Below are positions 1,290 through 42,307 of a stretch of 42,307 bases of DNA, piece by piece. The notes beneath the pieces were generated by a model. It did no database searches. It was given only the letters and a program-made list of their open reading frames with translations, and was not told the DNA's origin. The position numbers were made by a program, and so were the translations under genes. The stretch lies in IMG/VR virus record IMGVR_UViG_2541047692_000013. One strand, 5' to 3'. The stretch is from a virus. Its lineage: Duplodnaviria > Heunggongvirae > Uroviricota > Caudoviricetes. Within the stretch, counting starts at the first letter, position 1; the number at the start of each line of letters is the position of its first letter.

Positions 1290-1772
1290 CTATCTGGTCA
1301 GGGTATCGTATTGTTTTTCGCAGACTCTTCCGGCTTCGGCTGCCCGGTCAGCATACTCTGCCAGTTGTCTGTTTCTCTCGAGAGATTTGCTGAGCACGTC
1401 GGCAAGCAAAACTCCGGTGTCTGCGGCTGACGTCCCAGCGCCGACAATGGCGTTATACTGCCTGAGCTGCTCACGGATGGCAAAGAGTTGTTGCTGCAAC
1501 CGGCCAGCGCGAGCGGCAGCATCAAGAGCATCATTGCGCGCCTGGTCGATCCTCTGCTGCGCTTCACGTTCATTGATCGATTTCTCCTGTTCGTAGTGCT
1601 GACGAACTATCTCATCTTCAGCTTTGCGGTCTTCCTTCGCCTGCGCATACCCGGCATCGTACTGACGACTGCCGTGTGCATTCCAGGCTACAACTCCTGA
1701 TATGACCAGAACAGCAAGCATCGCCATGATAACCAACTGTTTCCAGTATGCTTTTGCGAATGCCCAGATCAT
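1290..1772 (-). CDS. i-spanin (Rz-like)
   Basis: N-terminal TM helix then coiled-coil periplasmic domain; start overlaps endolysin stop (ATGA); last gene of lysis cassette; contains embedded out-of-frame lipoprotein ORF. Confidence 0.6.
1298..1573 (-). CDS. o-spanin (Rz1-like lipoprotein), embedded in Rz in a different frame
   Basis: Signal peptide with lipobox LALAGC followed by short proline-rich mature domain; lies entirely inside the Rz ORF, the classic Rz/Rz1 arrangement. Confidence 0.55.
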   Translation of the reverse strand: MNVKRSRGSTRRAMMLLMLPLALAGCSNNSLPSVSSSGSITPLSALGRQPQTPEFCLPTCSANLSRETDNWQSMLTGQPKPEESAKNNTIP

Positions 1773-2398
1773 ACCGCCAGCACCTTACTGGCAGTGATGT
1801 ATCGCGCGCGCCGGTCATCAATGCCGTTCCGGCCACCATTGATAAGCAGAGTTACACGTGCAATATCTCCGGTATACTTCATGCAACCTTTGCTGGAGAA
1901 GAACCACGCCGCGCTACGAGCCGCGTATTCGTCCTGCGCCAACAGTTCAGGATTCTCCAGCAGGTCAACTTTCAGACCGTTTCCACAGTCACGATAGTTA
2001 TTCAAACCGGTAATCTGGATAAGCCCGCGCCCACGGTAATTCCAGCCATCACCAGGGGCATTGTTCCCCATGCGTTTGCTGTACACCAGATTGGCGATCG
2101 CTCGCTGGCGCTCGAGTGGCAATGGTGGCTCACCAGCACGGCGACCAAGTGCATTAGCCTGCCCCTGAGTGAGACGCCCAGCCCGAACGAAGTTAGCCAG
2201 TCCGCTGACGCTGTAGTTGAAATTCTCCTGCAACCGGGTGAAGCCCCCAGACTCATGCCCGACTTGAGCAATAAACATTGCCTGATCTTCTGCTTTGCTG
2301 ATACCAAACTCTTTCATCGCAGAAGTTATATGCGAGAACCAGCGTGCGGCCAGCGCCTCGCTAATACCAGCAGCTCGCTGGAATTGTTTAATCTCCAT
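1769..2398 (-). CDS. endolysin, glycoside hydrolase family 19 (chitinase-like)
   Basis: Start reassigned to ATG 2396-2398 (MEIKQF...) with SD gaggt 6 nt upstream; the ORF-track N-terminal extension is discounted. GH19-like motifs ([24 protein letters not shown]). Confidence 0.8.
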
Positions 2399-2696
2399 GT
2401 TTAGACCTCGATATTTTGAAAATCTGAACAACGTTACCGCGTGTTTTAATAACCGCGGCAAGCATGACAGCGTTGATAATGACCTCAGATAAATCCACAG
2501 CCATTGGCGTGCGTAACCAGATTGCATAGACGACACGAACAGGAATACTGGCCGCAGCAACAATAAGGAAATAAGCAAGCCACCCTCCCCATCTTCGATG
2601 TTGAGAGCCGTTACGCCGGAATGTGACAACGCGAATTGCTATGCCAGTACAAATAACTGCATTGGTGATAAGCAAAAAAAACTCATGCGTTACCAT
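2388..2696 (-). CDS. holin-like small membrane protein
   Basis: 102 aa, three predicted TM segments; strong SD ggggaga; directly upstream of endolysin. Confidence 0.5.
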
Positions 2697-3087
2697 CGTC
2701 TTTTCTCCCCGGAATTAAATCGCGTGGATTGTCTGAACGGTGGTAGAGCCATATACCAATACGCACAGCGACAATTGCTGACACGAATGCGCCAGCAGAG
2801 AAAACAATCCCTTTTTCAAAAGAGTCCTGCGTGATGGTAGGGATCAGGCTGGCTATGCCGATAAGAATTGATGCTGCTGGTTTGTAGAAAAGAAGTCCGC
2901 AGAGAAAGCTAAGCATCGATAAGAGTACGCGACGATGAATTGGGTACTCTACCGCAGAGGTAACAAAAATTACCGCACCAGCCAAAGACCCTAAAGCAAC
3001 CTCAGGAGGAACTCCTGCTATAACCGCAGCAAGAGAACTCATACTAAGCCATTGATTTAAAGATTCGCTGGTTAGCTGAACTGACAT
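2683..3087 (-). CDS. holin or lysis-associated multi-TM membrane protein
   Basis: Start taken as ATG 3085-3087 (MSVQLT...) with SD ggtgg at 5 nt; several hydrophobic helices; first gene of lysis cassette. Confidence 0.45.
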   Translation of the reverse strand: MSVQLTSESLNQWLSMSSLAAVIAGVPPEVALGSLAGAVIFVTSAVEYPIHRRVLLSMLSFLCGLLFYKPAASILIGIASLIPTITQDSFEKGIVFSAGAFVSAIVAVRIGIWLYHRSDNPRDLIPGRKDDGNA

Positions 3088-3189
3088 AAAGACCACCGTT
3101 TAATGTGCATGAAGCCCCACTTAGTTAGTGAAATAACACACATATTAAACCATATATGAATCACATTTAAACGGATAACTCTTCACGAA

Positions 3190-3206
3190 ATTACCCTATA
3201 GGTGAT
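3190..3206. promoter_or_regulatory. operator-like palindrome aTTACCctataGGTGAt (one mismatch) in divergent lysis / acetyltransferase promoter region
   Basis: Member of the recurring TTACC-N5-GGTAA family; 36 bp upstream of the acyltransferase ATG; TATCAT -10-like hexamer abuts it. Confidence 0.45.
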
Positions 3207-3241
3207 ATCATTGGGTTATCCTATTCAAAACGATAGCAATT

Positions 3242-5182
3242 ATGTCTTATTTAAAATACAGAACAGATATTGATGGGCTGCGAGCTATTGCGGTTTTGCT
3301 GGTCGTGCTGTACCACGCAAACTTTCCTATTCATGGTGGTTTTATTGGTGTAGATGTTTTTTTCGTCATATCAGGATATCTCATTACCAACATCATATAT
3401 AAAGAGACTAAAAGAAATATTTTTTCATTCCTTAATTTTTACAAACGTCGAATAAAGCGATTGCTCCCAGCTTTTGCTTTTCTTCTTTTATTTTTATTTG
3501 TTTACTGCAAATTATATTTGATGCCAGATGAACTTATATCATTCTCTAAAAGTGCGGTATACGCTCTTCTTGGCATAAGCAATTTCTATTTTTTTAGTAG
3601 CACAGGTTACTTTAACTCAACCTCTTATGAACCGCTTTTACACACATGGTCGCTTTCCGTTGAAGAGCAGTTCTACATTGTATGGCCTTTCATCGTTTTC
3701 ATGCTCGCTCGGAACTCAGGGACAAAAAAAGCAATAATAATATCCTCATTACTATTTATTGTATTCCTTGGTATTTCACAGTATGGAGCGGTTAATTATA
3801 AAACAGCAGCGTATCTCCTACTGCCTTTTAGGTTCTTTGAGTTGCTCTCAGGTGCCCTACTTGCTATCTATAAAGATTCAATAACAAAACATCTGCGCCA
3901 CGGTTCTGTAATTTCACTGGTCGGCGTAATGCTGATTGTGTTGAGTTCATTATTTATAAATTCTAACACGCCATTTCCTGGGTTCACTGTTTTGCCTACA
4001 TGTTTAGGCGCTGTAATGCTTATTGCTGCAGGTGACTCATCCAAAAACTTCATTTCTAAAGTGCTGTCTTTAACTCCAGTTGTTTATGTAGGAAGAATTT
4101 CCTACTCTCTTTATTTATGGCACTGGCCTGTACTGATTCTTGCTGAATACAGGGGTATCGATCTTACGGCCTTAAATGCGACGGCGCTCATACTTATCGC
4201 ATTCATCATGGCAAGCATAAGCTATCACTTCGTTGAAAAGCCATTTAGGAAGGATTCGCTGCAATATTTCAGGACTGCATTTATAACCATCTACTTGATA
4301 CCATTAATAGTATCCGCTGCCTATGCAGCGTACATTTTAAAAAATGATGGTTTTCGCGCCAAAAGTTCAGAGTTAGTATCTGAATTAGAAGAGAGAAACG
4401 CGACAAATATTATGCGCCCACAGTGTATTGATAAATTATTTATCGGTAATGTAAATGACTGTCATCTTGGCGTTAATAAAGGCGAAGTAGATGGCGTGCT
4501 TCTTGGTGACTCCTTTGGTAATGCATATGCTTACTTTATTGATGAACTTGCGAAAGATGCTGGAATATCAATAACAGATACTACATATAGCTCAACACCT
4601 GTAATATCAGGAATTTATGTGCAGGATATCAGAAATAAGATATCTGACATAGATGCTAACCTGATAATGACATATACAAAAAACAGGCTGGAGTATGCAG
4701 CAAAACAAAAGTTCGCGATAATTTCCGTTTTTTGGGATCAGTACGGGCCACAAAATAATTACTTCCGTATCTTCGATAAAAACGGTGACGTATCGGAGAA
4801 TGCTTACCAGTTGCAATCTGAAGCAATAAAATATCTGCTGTCCAATGGCGTGAAAGTTTACATCATTGCAAGACCTTACCAGTCTATTGGCCCTGCTGCG
4901 ATAAACAAACTGCGCCAAATTAAGCTACGGCATGGGGATGTAACAACTGAAAAATATGAATACGGCGTAAAGAAAGATGATCGGATAGAATACAAGTTAA
5001 AGCAGGAGTTCCCTCAGATAACGCTAATCGATCCTAACGATGTACTTTGCCACAAAGGGGAATGTGATGCCATCGTGGATGGGAAGATCATTTTCAGAAC
5101 TGATGGTTCACACCTGAATGCTGTTGGAGCAAAAAAAATCGGGGAAGAGTATTTGAAAAACTACGCAAACCCATTTCGATAA
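3242..5182 (+). CDS. O-antigen acetyltransferase-like (acyltransferase-3 membrane domain plus SGNH-type C-terminal domain); serotype-conversion moron
   Basis: N-terminal multi-TM acyltransferase-3 signature (DGLRAIAVLLVVLYH..., FFVISGYLIT); long periplasmic C-terminal domain as in OafA-type enzymes; visibly AT-rich; converges on tailspike. Confidence 0.75.
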   Translation: MSYLKYRTDIDGLRAIAVLLVVLYHANFPIHGGFIGVDVFFVISGYLITNIIYKETKRNIFSFLNFYKRRIKRLLPAFAFLLLFLFVYCKLYLMPDELISFSKSAVYALLGISNFYFFSSTGYFNSTSYEPLLHTWSLSVEEQFYIVWPFIVFMLARNSGTKKAIIISSLLFIVFLGISQYGAVNYKTAAYLLLPFRFFELLSGALLAIYKDSITKHLRHGSVISLVGVMLIVLSSLFINSNTPFPGFTVLPTCLGAVMLIAAGDSSKNFISKVLSLTPVVYVGRISYSLYLWHWPVLILAEYRGIDLTALNATALILIAFIMASISYHFVEKPFRKDSLQYFRTAFITIYLIPLIVSAAYAAYILKNDGFRAKSSELVSELEERNATNIMRPQCIDKLFIGNVNDCHLGVNKGEVDGVLLGDSFGNAYAYFIDELAKDAGISITDTTYSSTPVISGIYVQDIRNKISDIDANLIMTYTKNRLEYAAKQKFAIISVFWDQYGPQNNYFRIFDKNGDVSENAYQLQSEAIKYLLSNGVKVYIIARPYQSIGPAAINKLRQIKLRHGDVTTEKYEYGVKKDDRIEYKLKQEFPQITLIDPNDVLCHKGECDAIVDGKIIFRTDGSHLNAVGAKKIGEEYLKNYANPFR

Positions 5183-5185
5183 GGA

Positions 5186-5203
5186 GTGCGCCTCGCGGCG
5201 CAC
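5186..5203. terminator. GC-rich hairpin between convergent acetyltransferase and tailspike genes (no U-run)
   Basis: 7-bp stem gtgcgcc/ggcgcac with loop tcgc, in the 30-nt gap between the two stop codons. Confidence 0.35.
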
Positions 5204-5212
5204 ATGCCTAAA

Positions 5213-7444
5213 TTAAGACTTCTTAAGGTACGACCATGTAACAGTGGTCGTACCGCTGCTGGTAATAGATATATCCCTTTCTGATACGCTTGCTGTGAGG
5301 AACGCCGCAGTCTTCAGCGGCTGGATCATTGCTGTCGTACCATCATAAATTACCAGGAATGAAATCGCGTAGTTTGCACCTCCGCCAGAAACCCACACGT
5401 TAACATCATAAACTCCCTCAGAGTTTGGCAAAGTAAAGAGCACGGACGCTACGTTAGCGTTGACCGATTTAGTACCCTTGTCGGTATAGACCGTGGGCAC
5501 CTGAAGCCCATTGGCATTTTTATTTTCTACATACCCACCAGCAATAACGCCTGACGTGATGCAGTTCGTGTAGTTAACGTTGCCGGTGCTCACAGTAGAG
5601 ATGGTTGGAGTTCCTCCGGCCGGAGCCTGGAACCGGCAGTTATCTGCATCAACCTGCGAGGTTACATCTGTGTGGATGAATGATGGATAGCCGGCCATTC
5701 CTTCAAAAGCGATCGGCGTACCATCGAAGCTATCTTTGCAGTTCAGCATCTTCACGCGAGATCCATTTATCGCGCGGTAAAAATCAACGATACCATTAGA
5801 ACCACCGAAAGATGTTTTCAACTTGTTGCCAGAACCAACTGCCCCGACTATCGAAACGGTTGAATTATCGAATGTCATAAACGCCACCTCAAGTGCTGAG
5901 TTGTTGTTTATAACGTTCGCCTCACCATCAAAACCGGAGATAAGAAATCCGTGACAATTCGAAAGGTAAATAGCAGACTGACCGATAGACGCGTTGGAGT
6001 TTACTGTCATCTTATCTGCTGCGCAGTTCGTCATCTGCCCTGAAAGGAGGTTTGTTAAATACCACGCGCATACGCCACCCATTACATAGCAGGACTCATA
6101 ATGGATCGTCGTGCCGGTGTTTTTGTAGAAACCACCGCGACTGCGACGCACCCATACATGCTCAAGCCTAGACATATAATTTCCAGAGTCGTCATATACT
6201 CCCCACCATGCCCCATCTATATCGACGTTTTTAATCCTTATCAAACCCGGCGATGTCTCACCACCATTTATAAGAATGCCAATTTTACCGTCGTTTGTGG
6301 CAGCATCTGTTGGATAGTCAATTCCATTCTGATCATAGAAAATATATAAATTCTCAATATTTCCTGAAGCAAAAGACTCTCCATAATGTAAGCACGCTTT
6401 ATTTCCAATTACGGAAATAAAAGTCCCTGATCTATTTATTATGTTATTACACTCACCGTATACAGTTGCAGATGTATTCATCTTAATAGTGTCATTAACA
6501 AAATATGCATTTCCACCTGGAATAAACACATTTCGTCCAGTGTTAATAGCTGCCTGTATTCCTGCGTAGTCAAAAGACTGGGTAAGCGATGTCACAAATG
6601 GATATACCATTTGTGCTGCTGTCAATGTTGAAAACACTTCGCTTAACTGATGAAGTTTTCCATCGCCTGTAGCACCAAAATCTTTTGCACTAATAAAATC
6701 GCTGTTTTTATCATGCTGTGTACGAATAAATGAACTAATGAAAGGTTGCTTCACCGAGATCAGAGCATCGCCTTTCCCGTCCTCGCCGCTGGCCAACTGG
6801 TTGAATACGTCAGCCGCCGTTCCTGAAGGCACAGGGAACGGAACGGGCTTACCGTTGGCGATGCCGATTATGCTTCCTTCAAGTTGAGCGAGAGGTGGCA
6901 GCGGATCGATATAAGAATCAGGAACACGGATTGTATGGTCGATATTCGATAAAACCGTACTGTCCACATAATTCTTTGTGGATGCATCCTGCGGGTTTAC
7001 CGGGTCTTTCAGGTTTCGAATATAGTTGTTCAGCGCGTTATAATAATTTGCCACGAATGACGGCTTGCGCAGCGCCAAGCTAAACCAACTTCGAACCTGC
7101 TGGATCAGCATCGTTAGCTTATCAAAAGCATCCTCATGCACTTCTGCAAAGAACTTCCCCTGATTACGCAAATCAGTTTCCTGCGTAACCGGGAGCTCTC
7201 GTGATATAGAAATCTGGTAACCGTTAGCTAACGCCTTCGACAGAATTACATTACCGCCGTTATATCCACCAGCCCCAGTGACAGTGTAATCAGTATCCAG
7301 AGCCAGCACAGCGATATTTTCGTCAAGGTCAACCACCTGCACTACCAGATCAGATTCCTTGAAAACCCTAAAGGTATAAGGGAATGAAGTCGTAACGCCA
7401 TTGCCTGTGTATTCGTTGTGGTCAACTTCGGTTGAGACCGTCAT
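5213..7444 (-). CDS. tailspike / tail fibre protein with T7-type N-terminal adaptor domain and beta-helix-like receptor-binding domain
   Basis: N-terminus (YTGNGVTTSFPYTFRVF...DLVVQVVD...LDTDYTV) matches the conserved podovirus tail-fibre N-terminal domain; 743 aa; Gly/Asn/Thr-rich repeats. Confidence 0.75.
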   Translation of the reverse strand: MTVSTEVDHNEYTGNGVTTSFPYTFRVFKESDLVVQVVDLDENIAVLALDTDYTVTGAGGYNGGNVILSKALANGYQISISRELPVTQETDLRNQGKFFAEVHEDAFDKLTMLIQQVRSWFSLALRKPSFVANYYNALNNYIRNLKDPVNPQDASTKNYVDSTVLSNIDHTIRVPDSYIDPLPPLAQLEGSIIGIANGKPVPFPVPSGTAADVFNQLASGEDGKGDALISVKQPFISSFIRTQHDKNSDFISAKDFGATGDGKLHQLSEVFSTLTAAQMVYPFVTSLTQSFDYAGIQAAINTGRNVFIPGGNAYFVNDTIKMNTSATVYGECNNIINRSGTFISVIGNKACLHYGESFASGNIENLYIFYDQNGIDYPTDAATNDGKIGILINGGETSPGLIRIKNVDIDGAWWGVYDDSGNYMSRLEHVWVRRSRGGFYKNTGTTIHYESCYVMGGVCAWYLTNLLSGQMTNCAADKMTVNSNASIGQSAIYLSNCHGFLISGFDGEANVINNNSALEVAFMTFDNSTVSIVGAVGSGNKLKTSFGGSNGIVDFYRAINGSRVKMLNCKDSFDGTPIAFEGMAGYPSFIHTDVTSQVDADNCRFQAPAGGTPTISTVSTGNVNYTNCITSGVIAGGYVENKNANGLQVPTVYTDKGTKSVNANVASVLFTLPNSEGVYDVNVWVSGGGANYAISFLVIYDGTTAMIQPLKTAAFLTASVSERDISITSSGTTTVTWSYLKKS

Positions 7445-7547
7445 GTTAAATCTCCAGATAGTCGCAGCACCCGTTGCGCCGCATATCTGGTTATTCTATT
7501 ACCTGAAAAACCATATATGGATGGAAAGAGTGTTAATGTGAGCAGAT

Positions 7548-7564
7548 ATTACCTTTCAGGTGAT
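7548..7564. promoter_or_regulatory. operator-like palindrome aTTACCtttcaGGTGAt (one mismatch) in tailspike / antirepressor-domain divergent region
   Basis: Same family as the other TTACC-N5-GGTAA sites; about 100 bp upstream of tailspike start. Confidence 0.45.
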
Positions 7565-7600
7565 TCGCAAAACGTGCTGGATAGCAAACAAATTATTTGC

Positions 7601-7620
7601 TACTGTATAAACATACAGTT
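7601..7620. promoter_or_regulatory. LexA (SOS) box TACTGTATAAACATACAGTT
   Basis: CTGT-N8-ACAG with AT-rich spacer; 17/20 match to E. coli consensus TACTGTATATATATACAGTA; overlaps a TATAAA -10-like hexamer; 20 bp upstream of ATG 7640. Confidence 0.65.
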
Positions 7621-7639
7621 ATTGCATGGAGAAGATAAG

Positions 7640-7897
7640 ATGCAGCAGTATCACTATCCACTGGAAGAGGGATTTACCGAAAGGATTCACACGCCGGGAG
7701 GCGTCAGGTCACTGGTGGAAGGATCGCACTTGATGAAATTACTCCGGGATCTCGATAAGGATGGATTTAATGTCGATGGCCCACTTGCCGAACTGACTGC
7801 ACTGATTAACTACGTCACCAGCTCACAGATGTCTATGCAGGATCTGCAAACACATCTCGACTATTGTGCCGAACAACTACGAAAACAAACCACATAA
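7640..7897 (+). CDS. small protein homologous to the antirepressor C-terminal domain (stand-alone domain); candidate SOS-inducible antirepressor
   Basis: ATG 7640 with SD ggagaag; about 40% identity, gap-free, to the C-terminus of the Ant protein at 9045..9755 (IH.P.GV..L.E.S.LM.LL..L..DG..V.G..AELT...QTH). ORF track start 7517 would put the LexA box inside the CDS. Confidence 0.5.
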   Translation: MQQYHYPLEEGFTERIHTPGGVRSLVEGSHLMKLLRDLDKDGFNVDGPLAELTALINYVTSSQMSMQDLQTHLDYCAEQLRKQTT

Positions 7898-7903
7898 AGA
7901 AAA

Positions 7904-7919
7904 GGCCGCAAGAGCGGCC
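7904..7919. terminator. bidirectional terminator hairpin between convergent genes
   Basis: Stem ggccgc/gcggcc with loop aaga; T-rich on the minus-strand side, A-rich on the plus side. Confidence 0.5.
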
Positions 7920-8647
7920 TATCGTTTCGCTTTGTGCTCGTCCCAGCACGTTTTGCACCATGCCATTAAGCCATCCGCATTTTGATTATTAGGGTAAAAG
8001 CTGGTTCGTTTTCTGCGGACATTACAAATTGGGCACCACTTCATATGACGTGTATTCTTTGGGCCATCTAGACACCTTGCACACCACTTAGTCAATCCAT
8101 CTGGATTTTTTGACGATTTCCTGAATTTTTCATATGGAAGGTTTATTCTGCATCGCAAACACTGCTTGCGGGCACTTGAAACTTCGTTAGCTGATTCTTC
8201 TTTTGACGGCGATACAGAAGGTATTCTTGCTGGCTCTGATACTGCCTGAGGTGCTTTTTTAGGTGACTGAGACGATACGTCATCACCAGGGAATCTTCCA
8301 TGATATGCCGGACACGTTGACACTCCAGGTGGAAGCTCTGCTGTAAATGGCTTTGGCTGAATCAGTTGCCTCTCTTTTGCTAACTCCTGCTGTTTATAAT
8401 ATGTCTGGATTACCGCGCTATCATAAGCAGGAGGTACGGAAATATTAGGCGCATTATCTCCCGTTTTTTGAAACTGAGTGGAGGTGTGTTCTATCACCTG
8501 TGTACGATTAATCGTTATCTCCCCATCTTCAGTCTTTATCGTTTTGTTACGATTAACGACCGTACGATCAGAGATCTTAGTCTTGTTCTGGTGAAGGACA
8601 TAAATAATCACCGCAACCACACCAACAACTATCCAGAAAACTTCCAT
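7919..8647 (-). CDS. membrane-anchored protein with two C-terminal CxxC...CxxC zinc-ribbon-like repeats; function unknown
   Basis: N-terminal TM helix (VFWIVVGVVAVIIYVL); repeats CLRCRINLPYEKF...WCARC and CPICNVRRKRTSF...WCKTC; perfect operator 20 bp upstream of start. Confidence 0.5.
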   Translation of the reverse strand: MEVFWIVVGVVAVIIYVLHQNKTKISDRTVVNRNKTIKTEDGEITINRTQVIEHTSTQFQKTGDNAPNISVPPAYDSAVIQTYYKQQELAKERQLIQPKPFTAELPPGVSTCPAYHGRFPGDDVSSQSPKKAPQAVSEPARIPSVSPSKEESANEVSSARKQCLRCRINLPYEKFRKSSKNPDGLTKWCARCLDGPKNTRHMKWCPICNVRRKRTSFYPNNQNADGLMAWCKTCWDEHKAKR

Positions 8648-8666: not shown

Positions 8667-8683
8667 ATTACCTTAAAGGTAAT
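8667..8683. promoter_or_regulatory. operator palindrome aTTACCttaaaGGTAAt (perfect)
   Basis: Perfect TTACC-N5-GGTAA; immediately upstream of the 7919..8647 start codon on the minus strand. Confidence 0.55.
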
Positions 8684-36443: not shown

Positions 36444-36508
36444 TTCACCCATAAGGTAACAAAAATCAAGGATAGTTACCCATGAGGTGCATTTACCTGT
36501 TGGGTAAT
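36444..36508. promoter_or_regulatory. tripartite operator in the cro / cI-like intergenic region
   Basis: Three sites: TCACCcataaGGTAA (36445-36459), TTACCcatgaGGTGC (36476-36490), TTACCtgttgGGTAA (36493-36507); a minus-strand TTGATT -35-like hexamer lies among them. Confidence 0.6.
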
Positions 36509-36562: not shown

Positions 36563-37147
36563 ATGAAAAGTATCCAGGACGTCCGCAGGCAAAATCTCAA
36601 CGACTTGATCGACCGTGAATTCAATGGTGTTCAGACGCGGATGGCAGAAAAACTTGGAACTCAGGCAAATCTGGTAAACCGCTGGGCTCTTGGCAAGAAG
36701 GTTATCGGCGACCAGGTTGCGCGAAAAATTGAAGCTGCCGCCAATAAACCACGTAACTGGCTTGATATCGATCGCTCGCTTTCTCAGGAAGGTTTTCAGC
36801 CTGTCGGCCCAAGCGACATTGGTCAGCTGGCGGCTCACAACCTGGAACGCTGGATGAGCGAAAGCCGCGACCTTTCAACTCAGGGAAAACTTCACCGCGC
36901 ATCCGGCGTCGCCCAGGTGACAATCAGCCGCCTGTTAAACAATGAGGTCAGTGTTTCCATTTCCACCCTGGAGAATGTTGCATCAGCATTCGGGCGTCAC
37001 GGCTATGAATTACTGATTCACCCGCACGACCCTGCGACCATCAACTATGACCGCTCGCGCTACGCATTGTTACCCGAAACCGAGAAAGCAAAGATCGAAA
37101 GTTACATTGAATTTGTCATCAACCAGAACGAAAAAAACAAACAATAA
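36563..37147 (+). CDS. CI-like repressor with two tandem HTH (XRE-type) domains and no peptidase/autocleavage domain
   Basis: 194 aa; HTH-like segments at about residues 20-45 (VQTRMAEKLGTQANLVNRW) and 110-140 (ASGVAQVTISRLLNNEVSVSISTLENVASAF); no Ala-Gly/Ser-Lys LexA-type cleavage module seen. Confidence 0.55.
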   Translation: MKSIQDVRRQNLNDLIDREFNGVQTRMAEKLGTQANLVNRWALGKKVIGDQVARKIEAAANKPRNWLDIDRSLSQEGFQPVGPSDIGQLAAHNLERWMSESRDLSTQGKLHRASGVAQVTISRLLNNEVSVSISTLENVASAFGRHGYELLIHPHDPATINYDRSRYALLPETEKAKIESYIEFVINQNEKNKQ

Positions 37148-41056: not shown

Positions 41057-42307
41057 TTATTCCCCCGCCATCCACTTCTCAAACTTCGACGGGGAGAACG
41101 GAATCAGATCCGTATGCTCCCCGTTAATCCAGGAATCAATCATATCGGCCCACTGCTGCAACATGTAGGCGCGCTGTCTGGCGTATTCCGCTTTGTTATA
41201 TACGGCGCGCACACCTTTCTGCTCATGTGCCAGAGCCTTTTCAATCCAGTCTGAAGGATAACCAGCCTCATGCAACAACGTACTGGCTGTACGGCGCATA
41301 TCGTGTACGGTGAAGCCCTGAATATGCTCACCATCTTCATTTATTATTTTCACCGTTCTGTCGATCAGAGAGTTCAGCGCGGCATTAGATAATGGCTTCC
41401 GGAAATTGTAACGACCAGGAACCAGATATTCACTTCCACCAGCGCACATCTGCAACCCAACCAATATATCCTGTGCCTGTTTAGGCAGGTAAATAACGTG
41501 CGCCCGGCTTCCCTTCATGCGGTCTGAAGGAATTGTCCATGTCCATTTTTTAAAATCTATTTCATCCCACGTTGCATTGGTGAATTCGCCTTTACGAACC
41601 ATAGTGATAAGCACCAGCTTTAAAGCCATTTTCATAGTGCCCATAGCACCAATGGCATCCAGCGTGCGGAAGAACAGACCAATTTCTTCTGGTGTCAGTG
41701 TTCGCTCTCGTGGTTTAAATATGGCGATAGACGAAGGTTTAATGTCAGCCGCAGGATTAAACAAACCATGACCACGGTCATTGGCATGACGGTATACGCT
41801 GCTGATGATCTCCCTGGCCTGCACTGCTGTTGCCCGGCCGCCGCGTTCGACAATCCGGTCACACAAATCACGAACCATCGATGTGGTAATTTCAGTCATC
41901 ATTTTGTTGCCAAGAACCGGAAGTATGTCACGGTCGATCACCACCTGCTTCATTGCGCGGGTACTGTCAGCTAGGATGACATGTTTCATATAACTGTCGG
42001 TATGTACCGCAAACGTCTCGGCACCACGAATCTTTTTGATACCGTCACGTTTAGCCGCAGCCGGTGACTGGCCTGCTTTAAGCAGCTTCTTTGCAGCAAT
42101 CAGTTCTTCTCGCGCTTCTGCCAGGCTGATACCGTCACGCCCATACTGCCCGATTACCAGTGTTTCGCGGCGACCGTTGATACGGTAGTCATAGCGAAAC
42201 GAGACCGTGCCTGACGTAAGCACAGCTACATACAGCCCGTCACGATCGGAGACCTTGTACAGTTTGTCCTGCGGCTTGAGGTTTTTTAATTTTGTATCGG
42301 TAAGCAC
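41057..42307 (-). CDS. int: tyrosine integrase, P4-type
   Basis: 416 aa; N-terminal MLTDTKLKNLKP...YKVSD...GLY motif of P4-like integrases; C-terminal catalytic region with HDMRRT and terminal Tyr region; start codon at the window edge. Confidence 0.85.
   Translation of the reverse strand: MLTDTKLKNLKPQDKLYKVSDRDGLYVAVLTSGTVSFRYDYRINGRRETLVIGQYGRDGISLAEAREELIAAKKLLKAGQSPAAAKRDGIKKIRGAETFAVHTDSYMKHVILADSTRAMKQVVIDRDILPVLGNKMMTEITTSMVRDLCDRIVERGGRATAVQAREIISSVYRHANDRGHGLFNPAADIKPSSIAIFKPRERTLTPEEIGLFFRTLDAIGAMGTMKMALKLVLITMVRKGEFTNATWDEIDFKKWTWTIPSDRMKGSRAHVIYLPKQAQDILVGLQMCAGGSEYLVPGRYNFRKPLSNAALNSLIDRTVKIINEDGEHIQGFTVHDMRRTASTLLHEAGYPSDWIEKALAHEQKGVRAVYNKAEYARQRAYMLQQWADMIDSWINGEHTDLIPFSPSKFEKWMAGE

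Follow-up and report, generated by a model that had tools for sequence, protein, structure and literature searches.

The window analysed here, a 42,307-nt stretch of virus DNA (IMG/VR record IMGVR_UViG_2541047692_000013), consisted of chromosomal E. coli DNA at its left end, followed by a Uetakevirus-type prophage that ran up to the start of the integrase gene at 42307. A gene for a 646-aa acyltransferase (3242-5182, + strand) converged on the tailspike gene of this prophage (5213-7444, − strand, 743 aa). The two genes probably form a receptor cassette like those of phages phiV10 and epsilon15, in which an acetylase of the OafA/OafB type would modify the E. coli O2 O-antigen, exclude phages that adsorb to it, and be read from a promoter gated by the prophage repressor Rep.

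According to the proposed mechanism, the tailspike would bind, and probably cleave, the O2 O-antigen. By analogy with OafA and OatA, the ten-helix acyltransferase-3 (AT3) domain of the enzyme would draw acetyl groups from acetyl-CoA in the cytoplasm and carry them over the inner membrane, and the periplasmic SGNH domain (Ser424, Asp621, and His624) would pass them on to an O-unit sugar. So altered, the O-antigen would be a poorer receptor, and infected or lysogenic cells would be shielded against adsorption of the same phage and its relatives; lysis debris might be shielded likewise. The gene would be transcribed from a promoter of the phage backbone with a TG-extended −10 element, overlapped by a 17-bp Rep operator. 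Rep would repress it partially in the lysogen, and full expression would occur where the repressor is missing, at infection and induction.

The acyltransferase and the convergent tailspike

A hidden Markov model search matched both domains that an earlier note on this DNA had named. Pfam Acyl_transf_3 (PF01757) covered residues 9-324 (3266-4213) with an E value of 1.8e-37 and 129.6 bits (cutoff 31), and SGNH-fused-to-AT3 (PF19040) covered residues 403-638, the periplasmic domain (4448-5155), with an E value of 2.7e-27. The full-length protein was covered by the PHROG 'O-antigen acetylase' (E 2e-166). The gene was AT-rich, as had also been claimed, with a GC content of 38.1% (36% at third codon positions) compared with 48.9% for the prophage, and it did lie between the lysis cassette (1290-3096, − strand) and the tailspike gene.

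The AlphaFold model of the enzyme (predicted local distance difference test, pLDDT, 90.1) had a membrane domain of helices that extended to residue 367 and, after it, an alpha/beta domain. An eleventh helix was placed at about residues 343-367, ahead of the SGNH domain, and hydropathy agreed with it. The best Foldseek match in the PDB was the periplasmic domain of OafB, 6SE1 (E 1.3e-5, probability 1.00, target-normalised TM-score 0.58). PDB sequence searches with the protein alone or as a 27-sequence profile returned nothing useful, and only the fold search reached OafB.

The alignment comprised 27 sequences, i.e., the window protein and 26 homologues with 36-84% identity. Residues R14, H25, G32-G33, D38, S44-G45, R69, R70, R73, and N114 were invariant or nearly so, as were G422-D423-S424, H624, and the Cys pairs 395/407 and 603/608. 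The motifs GGFIGVD38, FFVISG, and S113-N114 were also present, and D621 completed the DxxH block, which gave Ser424 (codon 4511-4513), Asp621, and His624 (codon 5111-5113) as the predicted catalytic residues of the SGNH domain. The OafA residues R14, H25, D39, R69/R72, S112, S412, D587, and H590 have been tested by alanine substitution; activity was <1% for most mutants and about 10% for the Asp mutant, and mutants of the conserved disulfide pairs, to which the two Cys pairs of the window protein correspond, stayed active (PMC7448272). Comparison with Tables 1 and 2 of that study showed that the window protein carried counterparts of every OafA-essential residue. The gene was intact in 8/8 complete E. 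coli genomes that carried it, and the ratio of nonsynonymous to synonymous substitution rates was 0.08 against the 84%-identical copy in contig L003. Judged from its domains and residues, the enzyme is an OafA/OafB-type AT3-SGNH fusion, and it would transfer acetyl groups onto a sugar of the O-antigen.

The tailspike was identified from sequence matches to solved tailspikes and from PHROG tail families. Residues 1-156 matched the anchor domain of the solved tailspike PDB 28lx (E 3.6e-26), and residues 219-481 matched the solved tailspikes 4ru5, 4ru4, 2vbe, and 7sg7 (E 7e-14 to 1.8e-8). The N-terminal virion-anchor domain (codons 1 to about 161; 6962-7444, − strand) belonged to the conserved backbone, and only the N-terminal 160-220 codons were common at the DNA level with phiV10, TL-2011b, PAS61, and several hundred E. 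coli prophages, at 85-92% identity. The receptor-binding part (codons about 162-743; 5213-6961, − strand) was 39-52% identical to tailspikes of other coliphages, several of which are lytic.

The earlier note had also placed a shared hairpin between the two convergent genes. A GC-rich hairpin, GTGCGCC-TCGC-GGCGCAC (5186-5203), with a 7-bp stem and a TCGC loop, was indeed present in the 30-nt gap between the stop codons, and its folding energy was −14.8 kcal/mol (z = −2.6). It was identical in L003; the related prophage loci L016 and L018 had other hairpins at the corresponding place, and the 12-nt gap of phiV10 had no hairpin. The window hairpin had no U-run on either strand and the terminator scan made no call, so it failed the test for an intrinsic terminator, and its reading as a canonical bidirectional Rho-independent terminator was unsupported. 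The hairpin may stabilise 3' ends or pause convergent transcription. Rfam returned no RNA family in 2600-8000.

The exchangeable cassette and its O2 hosts

DNA homology to phiV10 and to prophage L018 ended at 3211/3212 and returned at 6959/6963. The left break lay one base past the −10 hexamer of the acyltransferase promoter, the right break lay at about codon 161 of the tailspike gene, and no DNA homology to phiV10 or L018 was found across the tailspike receptor-binding part. Judged from these breaks, the exchangeable block is 3.75 kb long (about 3212 to about 6960) and comprises the 5' untranslated region, the acyltransferase gene, the hairpin, and, as its right-hand part, the tailspike receptor-binding part. 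By the same alignments it is bounded by two conserved ends, the promoter-operator to the left and, to the right, the anchor-domain coding sequence, a putative recombination anchor.

Comparison of related cassettes indicates that the enzyme and the receptor-binding part diverge together. In L003, the enzyme was 84% identical and the tailspike 85% identical. In L016, the enzyme was 29% identical and the tailspike 58% identical overall, with the first ~220 residues identical and the remainder far more diverged. In phiV10, there was no match to the enzyme and none to the receptor-binding part of the tailspike. The DNA best conserved between the window and L003 (86-93%) ran from the 3' half of the SGNH domain through the hairpin into tailspike codons about 415-743; tailspike residues 401-743 were nearly identical (proportion of nonsynonymous differences 0.027). 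Synonymous divergence between the two was 0.4-0.7 across the junction and 1.8-2.2 in the flanks, an indication that the parts on either side of the junction have a more recent ancestry in common.

L003 is a 39.4-kb contig (Logan ERR11042137) with a backbone of 54% GC, and its integrase gene adjoined the Rz gene, an order expected of a phage genome that is free or circular. The cassette therefore also occurs in a diverged, possibly non-E. coli, Uetakevirus.

The lytic coliphages with similar receptor-binding parts could be competitors that the enzyme excludes, and Hf4s seroconversion protects against some unrelated phages. Both points would suit a gene that chiefly helps the host, through immune evasion or the exclusion of unrelated O2-specific phages, with self-exclusion only incidental. 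Such a benefit is compatible with the receptor-cassette explanation and does not exclude it. The acyltransferase was tightly linked to the receptor-binding domain of its own phage, with common boundaries and low synonymous divergence across the junction, and this physical and evolutionary linkage argues that self-recognition is part of the selected function. A role chiefly on behalf of the host is therefore considered rather unlikely.

Among 5426 complete E. coli genomes searched, the exact cassette was present in eight, and all eight carried or are typed O2/O50, a cluster found overall in 133/5426. The O2/O50-family wzx/wzy cluster was found in seven of them (SCU-116, AH19K002, MS20673, Eco_23-2678, VG38-53E1, AF5, and HCP4S3_I4). 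The eighth, 04-00955, has been published as Shiga toxin-producing E. coli O2:H6 (PMC3958309), and its galF and rfbB products had the same accessions as those of VG38-53E1. The hosts had at least three wzy alleles and came from human, monkey, calf (pen), and pig sources; the O2/O50 association was therefore not that of one clone. The O2 unit contains three L-rhamnose residues, N-acetylglucosamine, and a Fuc3NAc branch (PMC7685785). The O2 O-antigen is accordingly named here as the presumed tailspike receptor and acetylation target.

O2 and O50 have one common gene cluster, and conversion of O2 to O50 by the prophage was considered and rejected: a point mutation in fdtB, which removes the Fuc3NAc branch, accounts for the O2/O50 difference (PMC7685785). 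The apparently fragmented fdtC in the host O2 clusters was an annotation artefact, and an intact 155-aa open reading frame with a TTG start was present.

L016 (E. coli MFDS1019527) carried another cassette (2777-6927 of that locus), with a 619-aa AT3-SGNH protein and a homologous, diverged tailspike receptor-binding part. Its host was also O2/O50 (O-antigen cluster in L023). Two differing pairs of modifier and tailspike thus seem to target the same serogroup; a difference in the sites acetylated could lie behind this, or else a stepwise arms race.

The closest non-phage homologues of the enzyme were chromosomal, with 77% (Enterobacter) and 73% (Citrobacter) identity and 37-39% GC. These genes, at L004 6001-7935 (Enterobacter asburiae) and in L005-L007 (Citrobacter freundii), were divergent from an MBOAT and AlgX-like pair, a second putative polysaccharide acetylation system. 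The C. freundii homologue was called as a 553-aa product, and in L005 an 89-aa AT3 fragment was called directly upstream.

This chromosomal neighbourhood, which is not an O-antigen cluster, would fit an enzyme that modifies another glycan (capsule, enterobacterial common antigen, colanic acid, or peptidoglycan) and for which the place beside the tailspike is merely a permissive slot; AT3-SGNH proteins do acetylate many acceptors, including peptidoglycan in the case of OatA (PMC9558356). However, all cargo types found behind the promoter in related loci (AT3, AT3-SGNH, and GtrA) were families used in O-antigen modification. The annotated phage homologues (D3 orf28, BTP1 GtrC, PAS61, and Tyrion) were annotated as O-antigen or O-polysaccharide acetylases, the single exception being the protein of Pseudomonas phage Tr60_Ab31, listed in 1/2 records as a putative peptidoglycan O-acetyltransferase. 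The enzyme also co-varied with the receptor-binding part of the tailspike, and the hosts had the O2 cluster in common despite their differing wzy alleles and animal sources. A target other than the O-antigen is very unlikely on this evidence.

The cargo promoter and the putative repressor operator

The promoter of the acyltransferase gene (the cargo promoter) lay at the end of a control region of the phage backbone (3097-3211, + strand) that was conserved. It consisted of a −35-like TTCACG (3182-3187), an 18-nt spacer, and a TG-extended −10 element, TGATATCAT (3203-3211), with the hexamer TATCAT. Promoters were called as consensus matches, and this one was the best sigma-70 match in the region (9/12 plus TG). 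It was conserved in phiV10 and L003, and the hexamer read TATNNT after GGTGA in 17 related loci.

The operator-like site that the earlier note had reported at this promoter was real. The 17-bp operator ATTACCCTATAGGTGAT (3190-3206, 20.1 bits) spanned the spacer and the TG motif and reached one base into the −10 element, and its sole departure from the palindrome, G3204, was the G of the TG motif. In the window, the motif ATTACC-N5-GGTRAT was counted 27-35 times where 2.7-4.2 occurrences were expected, a total that none of the shuffles attained. Strong matches to the 17-bp palindrome ATTACC-N5-GGTAAT numbered 15, starting at 3190, 7548, 8667, 8760, 9827, 27055, 30202, 30220, 34143, 34205, 36107, 36444, 36492, 37204, and 37267. 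Of these, 13/15 lay outside the main coding open reading frames, many of them between divergent genes, and the two exceptions were adjacent, inside the 5' part of the terminase small-subunit gene. Operators preceded antirepressor-like genes, the tailspike gene, and the head-gene operon, and several lay near the repressor gene and the early promoter; this distribution looks like a distributed regulon rather than a single immunity region.

The putative binder of these sites was the prophage repressor Rep (36563-37147, + strand), with two helix-turn-helix domains (Pfam HTH_3). It was 100% identical to phiV10p40 and matched the SPC32H repressor, PDB 5D50 (E 4e-42), and its gene was flanked by the operators at 36444, 36492, 37204, and 37267. 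The SPC32H repressor binds palindromic sites as a tetramer (PMC9638917). Rep would likewise bind the operator at 3190-3206 and affect transcription of the acyltransferase gene.

The epsilon15 operators were taken from the features of its RefSeq record. The 17-bp 'protein_bind repressor' sites had the same consensus as the window operators, e.g., ATTACCTGTAAGGTAAT. A further site, TTTACCATATGGGTAAT, lay 41-57 nt upstream of the epsilon15 conversion gene 22; read in the gene direction (TGGTAAAAT), it was a TG-extended −10 element overlapped by a weakened half-site. The same arrangement of operator and promoter was found in phiV10, L003, L016, L018, and L019. The earlier note had called the operator unexpected for a gene expressed in lysogeny. 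The operator stands, but it belongs to a genus-wide design that includes epsilon15 and is compatible with expression in lysogens.

A scan of viral contigs for the pattern AAATTACC-N5-GGTGATAT gave 80 loci, chance hits included; 48/80 were without a phiV10-like flank, and only the 32/80 with a phiV10-like holin-like gene upstream were counted. The first gene behind the site in the flanked loci was AT3-only (at least 7 sequence types), AT3-SGNH (three types), or GtrA. For the consensus half-site GGTAATAT (GGTAAT), 35 of the 80 matches listed lay at the tailspike-side operator and 1 at the cargo promoter. The counts, 32 loci with GGTGAT against 1 with GGTAAT among the matches listed, are indicative only, and they suggest that the cargo promoter nearly always has the weakened GGTGAT form.

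The operator lay within the 145-bp region common to the acyltransferase gene and the divergent lysis cassette. On the minus strand, the consensus half-site followed by TT gave a −10-like TAATTT, and lysis transcripts respond to Rep (PMC9782041), as might be expected if the site served the lysis genes and had nothing to do with the acyltransferase. The locus L017 (3101-3506), a phiV10-like prophage at the same attachment (att) site with an empty slot, speaks against this. It kept an intact lysis cassette and the lysis-proximal half of the region, but the operator and the cargo promoter were absent; the operator is thus tied to the cargo promoter and not to the lysis genes. No acceptable minus-strand −35 element was found upstream, and no minus-strand promoter-like site was called in the intergenic region. 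Control of lysis as the sole function of the operator is highly improbable.

The acyltransferase might instead be fully repressed in stable lysogens and act only in the lytic or establishment phase, by masking the receptor so as to spare progeny from loss on debris and to exclude co-infecting phages, which would not be classical conversion. The extent to which the operator covers the promoter would favour this. One SPC32H Rep tetramer is enough for repression (PMC9638917), overexpressed Rep of the identical immunity type cuts phage lysis transcripts by >99.9% (PMC9782041), and the idea that lytic phages mask receptors has been raised in the literature (PMC12373910). On the other side, the cargo operator is almost always of the weakened form, and the site at 3190-3206 ranked only 10th among the 14 sites from which the matrix was built. 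Moreover, epsilon15 has its operator TTTACCATATGGGTAAT at the equivalent position upstream of the conversion genes. Lysogens of epsilon15 are the textbook case of converted cells, and because they are converted despite this operator, partial repression is favoured over full repression. Complete silence in the lysogen is regarded as unlikely.

A more specific form of the Rep-gated promoter can be proposed only tentatively. In phiV10/epsilon15-like phages generally, the weakened operator would wire the conversion promoter to the repressor, so that expression is held at a low, repressor-set level in lysogens and bursts at infection or induction. Conversion would then be largely an establishment and lytic function (sibling exclusion and debris masking), and a fixed operator-promoter platform would serve cassettes of modifier and receptor-binding part that are swapped.

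Several points weigh against the receptor-cassette explanation as a whole. An operator over the promoter could mean that the acyltransferase is silent in lysogens. Expression of phiV10 Oac from a plasmid blocks phiV10 adsorption, but this exclusion came from a pBAD plasmid and not from the native promoter in a lysogen (PMC11854483). The O2 structure as summarised in the review PMC7685785 mentions no O-acetyl group. The eight host genomes are phylogenetically non-independent, and the association statistics ignore kinship. The closest non-phage homologues are chromosomal and lie beside the MBOAT/AlgX pair, and the hairpin, at most a putative site of termination, has no U-tract. With these points taken into account, the receptor cassette is still judged the probable explanation.

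Further observations concerned the control region and its relatives. The locus L015 (E. coli HCP4S3_I4) carried an IS5-like ISKpn26 element between the −10 box and the acyltransferase ATG, with a 4-bp duplication (window-equivalent 3216-3219), which uncouples the intact gene from the operator-controlled promoter. In L019 (3627-4112), another phiV10-like prophage at the same att site, an intact operator and promoter were followed by only a remnant that started like an AT3 N-terminus. The control region also had other inverted repeats (I1-I4); these were short and AT-rich, and the one that was checked, TTAAACGG, was not conserved in phiV10; they were discarded on these grounds. A second operator, ATTACCTTTCAGGTGAT (7548-7564), lay between the tailspike gene and a divergent small gene, and its counterpart in epsilon15 carries a repressor-site annotation. 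Farther along, an open reading frame at 7919-8647 (− strand, 242 aa) was placed between the tailspike region and an antirepressor-like BRO gene. Its product had two C-terminal CxxC-rich motifs and weak Stc1, endonuclease VII, and Lar-like matches, and its start abutted a perfect operator (8667-8683).

Prophage setting and comparison with known systems

The host genes yfgH and yfgI occupied 1-1071. The left prophage boundary, beside yfgI, was the attachment-site core ATTGAGTGGGAATGATT (1163-1179, − strand), identical to the attP/attB core reported for phiV10, epsilon15, and ZX5 (PMC9782041). Gene order, att core, and repressor showed that the prophage had a phiV10-like (Uetakevirus) backbone integrated at the guaA att site. 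Complete E. coli genomes contained roughly 536 phiV10-like prophages in all. The first 11 kb had the same gene order as phiV10: Rz, endolysin, holin, membrane protein, the acyltransferase on the opposite strand, and then the convergent tailspike. The lysis cassette, on the − strand, was ordered as phiV10 p27-p30 and comprised an Rz-like protein (DUF2514, 1290-1772), a GH19 endolysin (Glyco_hydro_19, about 1769-2398), a holin (2388-2696), and a holin-like membrane protein (2683-3096), with Pfam Phage_holin_3_7 and Phage_holin_8 also matched.

AT3-SGNH proteins of temperate phages have already been annotated as O-antigen acetylases, and the window cassette is a further case of this known kind; none of these findings overturns current understanding. 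The small group of serotype-conversion modules of coliphages gains an O2-associated member in this cassette, and O2 ranks among the major serogroups of E. coli that are extraintestinal or avian pathogens. About 6% of complete O2/O50 genomes have the cassette, and a prophage-borne acetylase at that frequency could bear on serotyping, on vaccine epitopes of the O-antigen, and on which hosts therapeutic phages can infect. Receptor-modifying and receptor-binding functions were placed within one recombination block with defined ends, read from a conserved, putatively repressor-gated promoter, so that direct tests of how these phages regulate lysogenic conversion become possible.

Full-length AT3-SGNH proteins annotated as O-antigen acetylases also occur in the temperate Escherichia phage vB_EcoP_PAS61, Enterobacter phage Tyrion, and Pseudomonas phage D3 (orf28). 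PAS61 and Tyrion are Uetakevirus-like, and PAS61 has the tailspike N-terminus in common with the window, but the three enzymes were merely 28-30% identical to that of the window. GtrC of prophage BTP1, which is of the OafB type, had 36% identity across the AT3 part, and all four acetylases were at most 37% identical to the window enzyme. The exact pair of enzyme and tailspike was not found among 50,697 deposited phage records; PHROGs did contain near-identical families.

The closest known systems also include Salmonella OafA and OafB, which share with the window enzyme the two-domain architecture, the OafA-essential residues, and the Cys pairs, and the SGNH fold was closest to that of OafB 6SE1. 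Unlike them, the window gene converged on a Uetakevirus tailspike, and the sequence similarity was too low for a PDB sequence match.

The SPC32H and epsilon15 Rep-operator systems have a homologous repressor (PDB 5D50) and the same 17-bp palindrome as the annotated epsilon15 sites. The epsilon15 record annotates no site before the conversion genes, and an operator over the conversion promoter was not described in the accessible papers, though specialists may know of it; the site found here, together with its epsilon15 counterpart, extends the list in that record.

The note had compared the arrangement with phiV10 and epsilon15, and the comparison held for slot, gene order, and orientation but not for orthology. 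Phage phiV10 (GenBank DQ126339) shared with the window a genus-level backbone, the att core, an identical repressor, and the slot, orientation, promoter, and operator. Its acetylase is known to modify the O157 antigen and to block adsorption, and its oac-tailspike module was reportedly described by Perry et al. in 2009. However, phiV10 Oac has 338 aa, is AT3 only, and had no BLASTP-level homology to the window enzyme (E 0.45); the receptor-binding part of its tailspike was unrelated, and its host antigen is O157 rather than O2. By this comparison the two cargoes are analogous occupants of a shared slot, not orthologues. Genes 21/22 of epsilon15 filled the same slot, flanked by the tailspike and a holin-like gene and divergent from the lysis genes; upstream of them, a TG-extended −10 element was overlapped by a repressor operator. 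Unlike the window, epsilon15 has no acetylase there: its cargo is an O-antigen polymerase/ligase-family protein and a small inhibitor, and its conversion alters the polymer linkage. The resemblance to both phages is, as far as the genes can be compared, one of position and logic rather than orthology.

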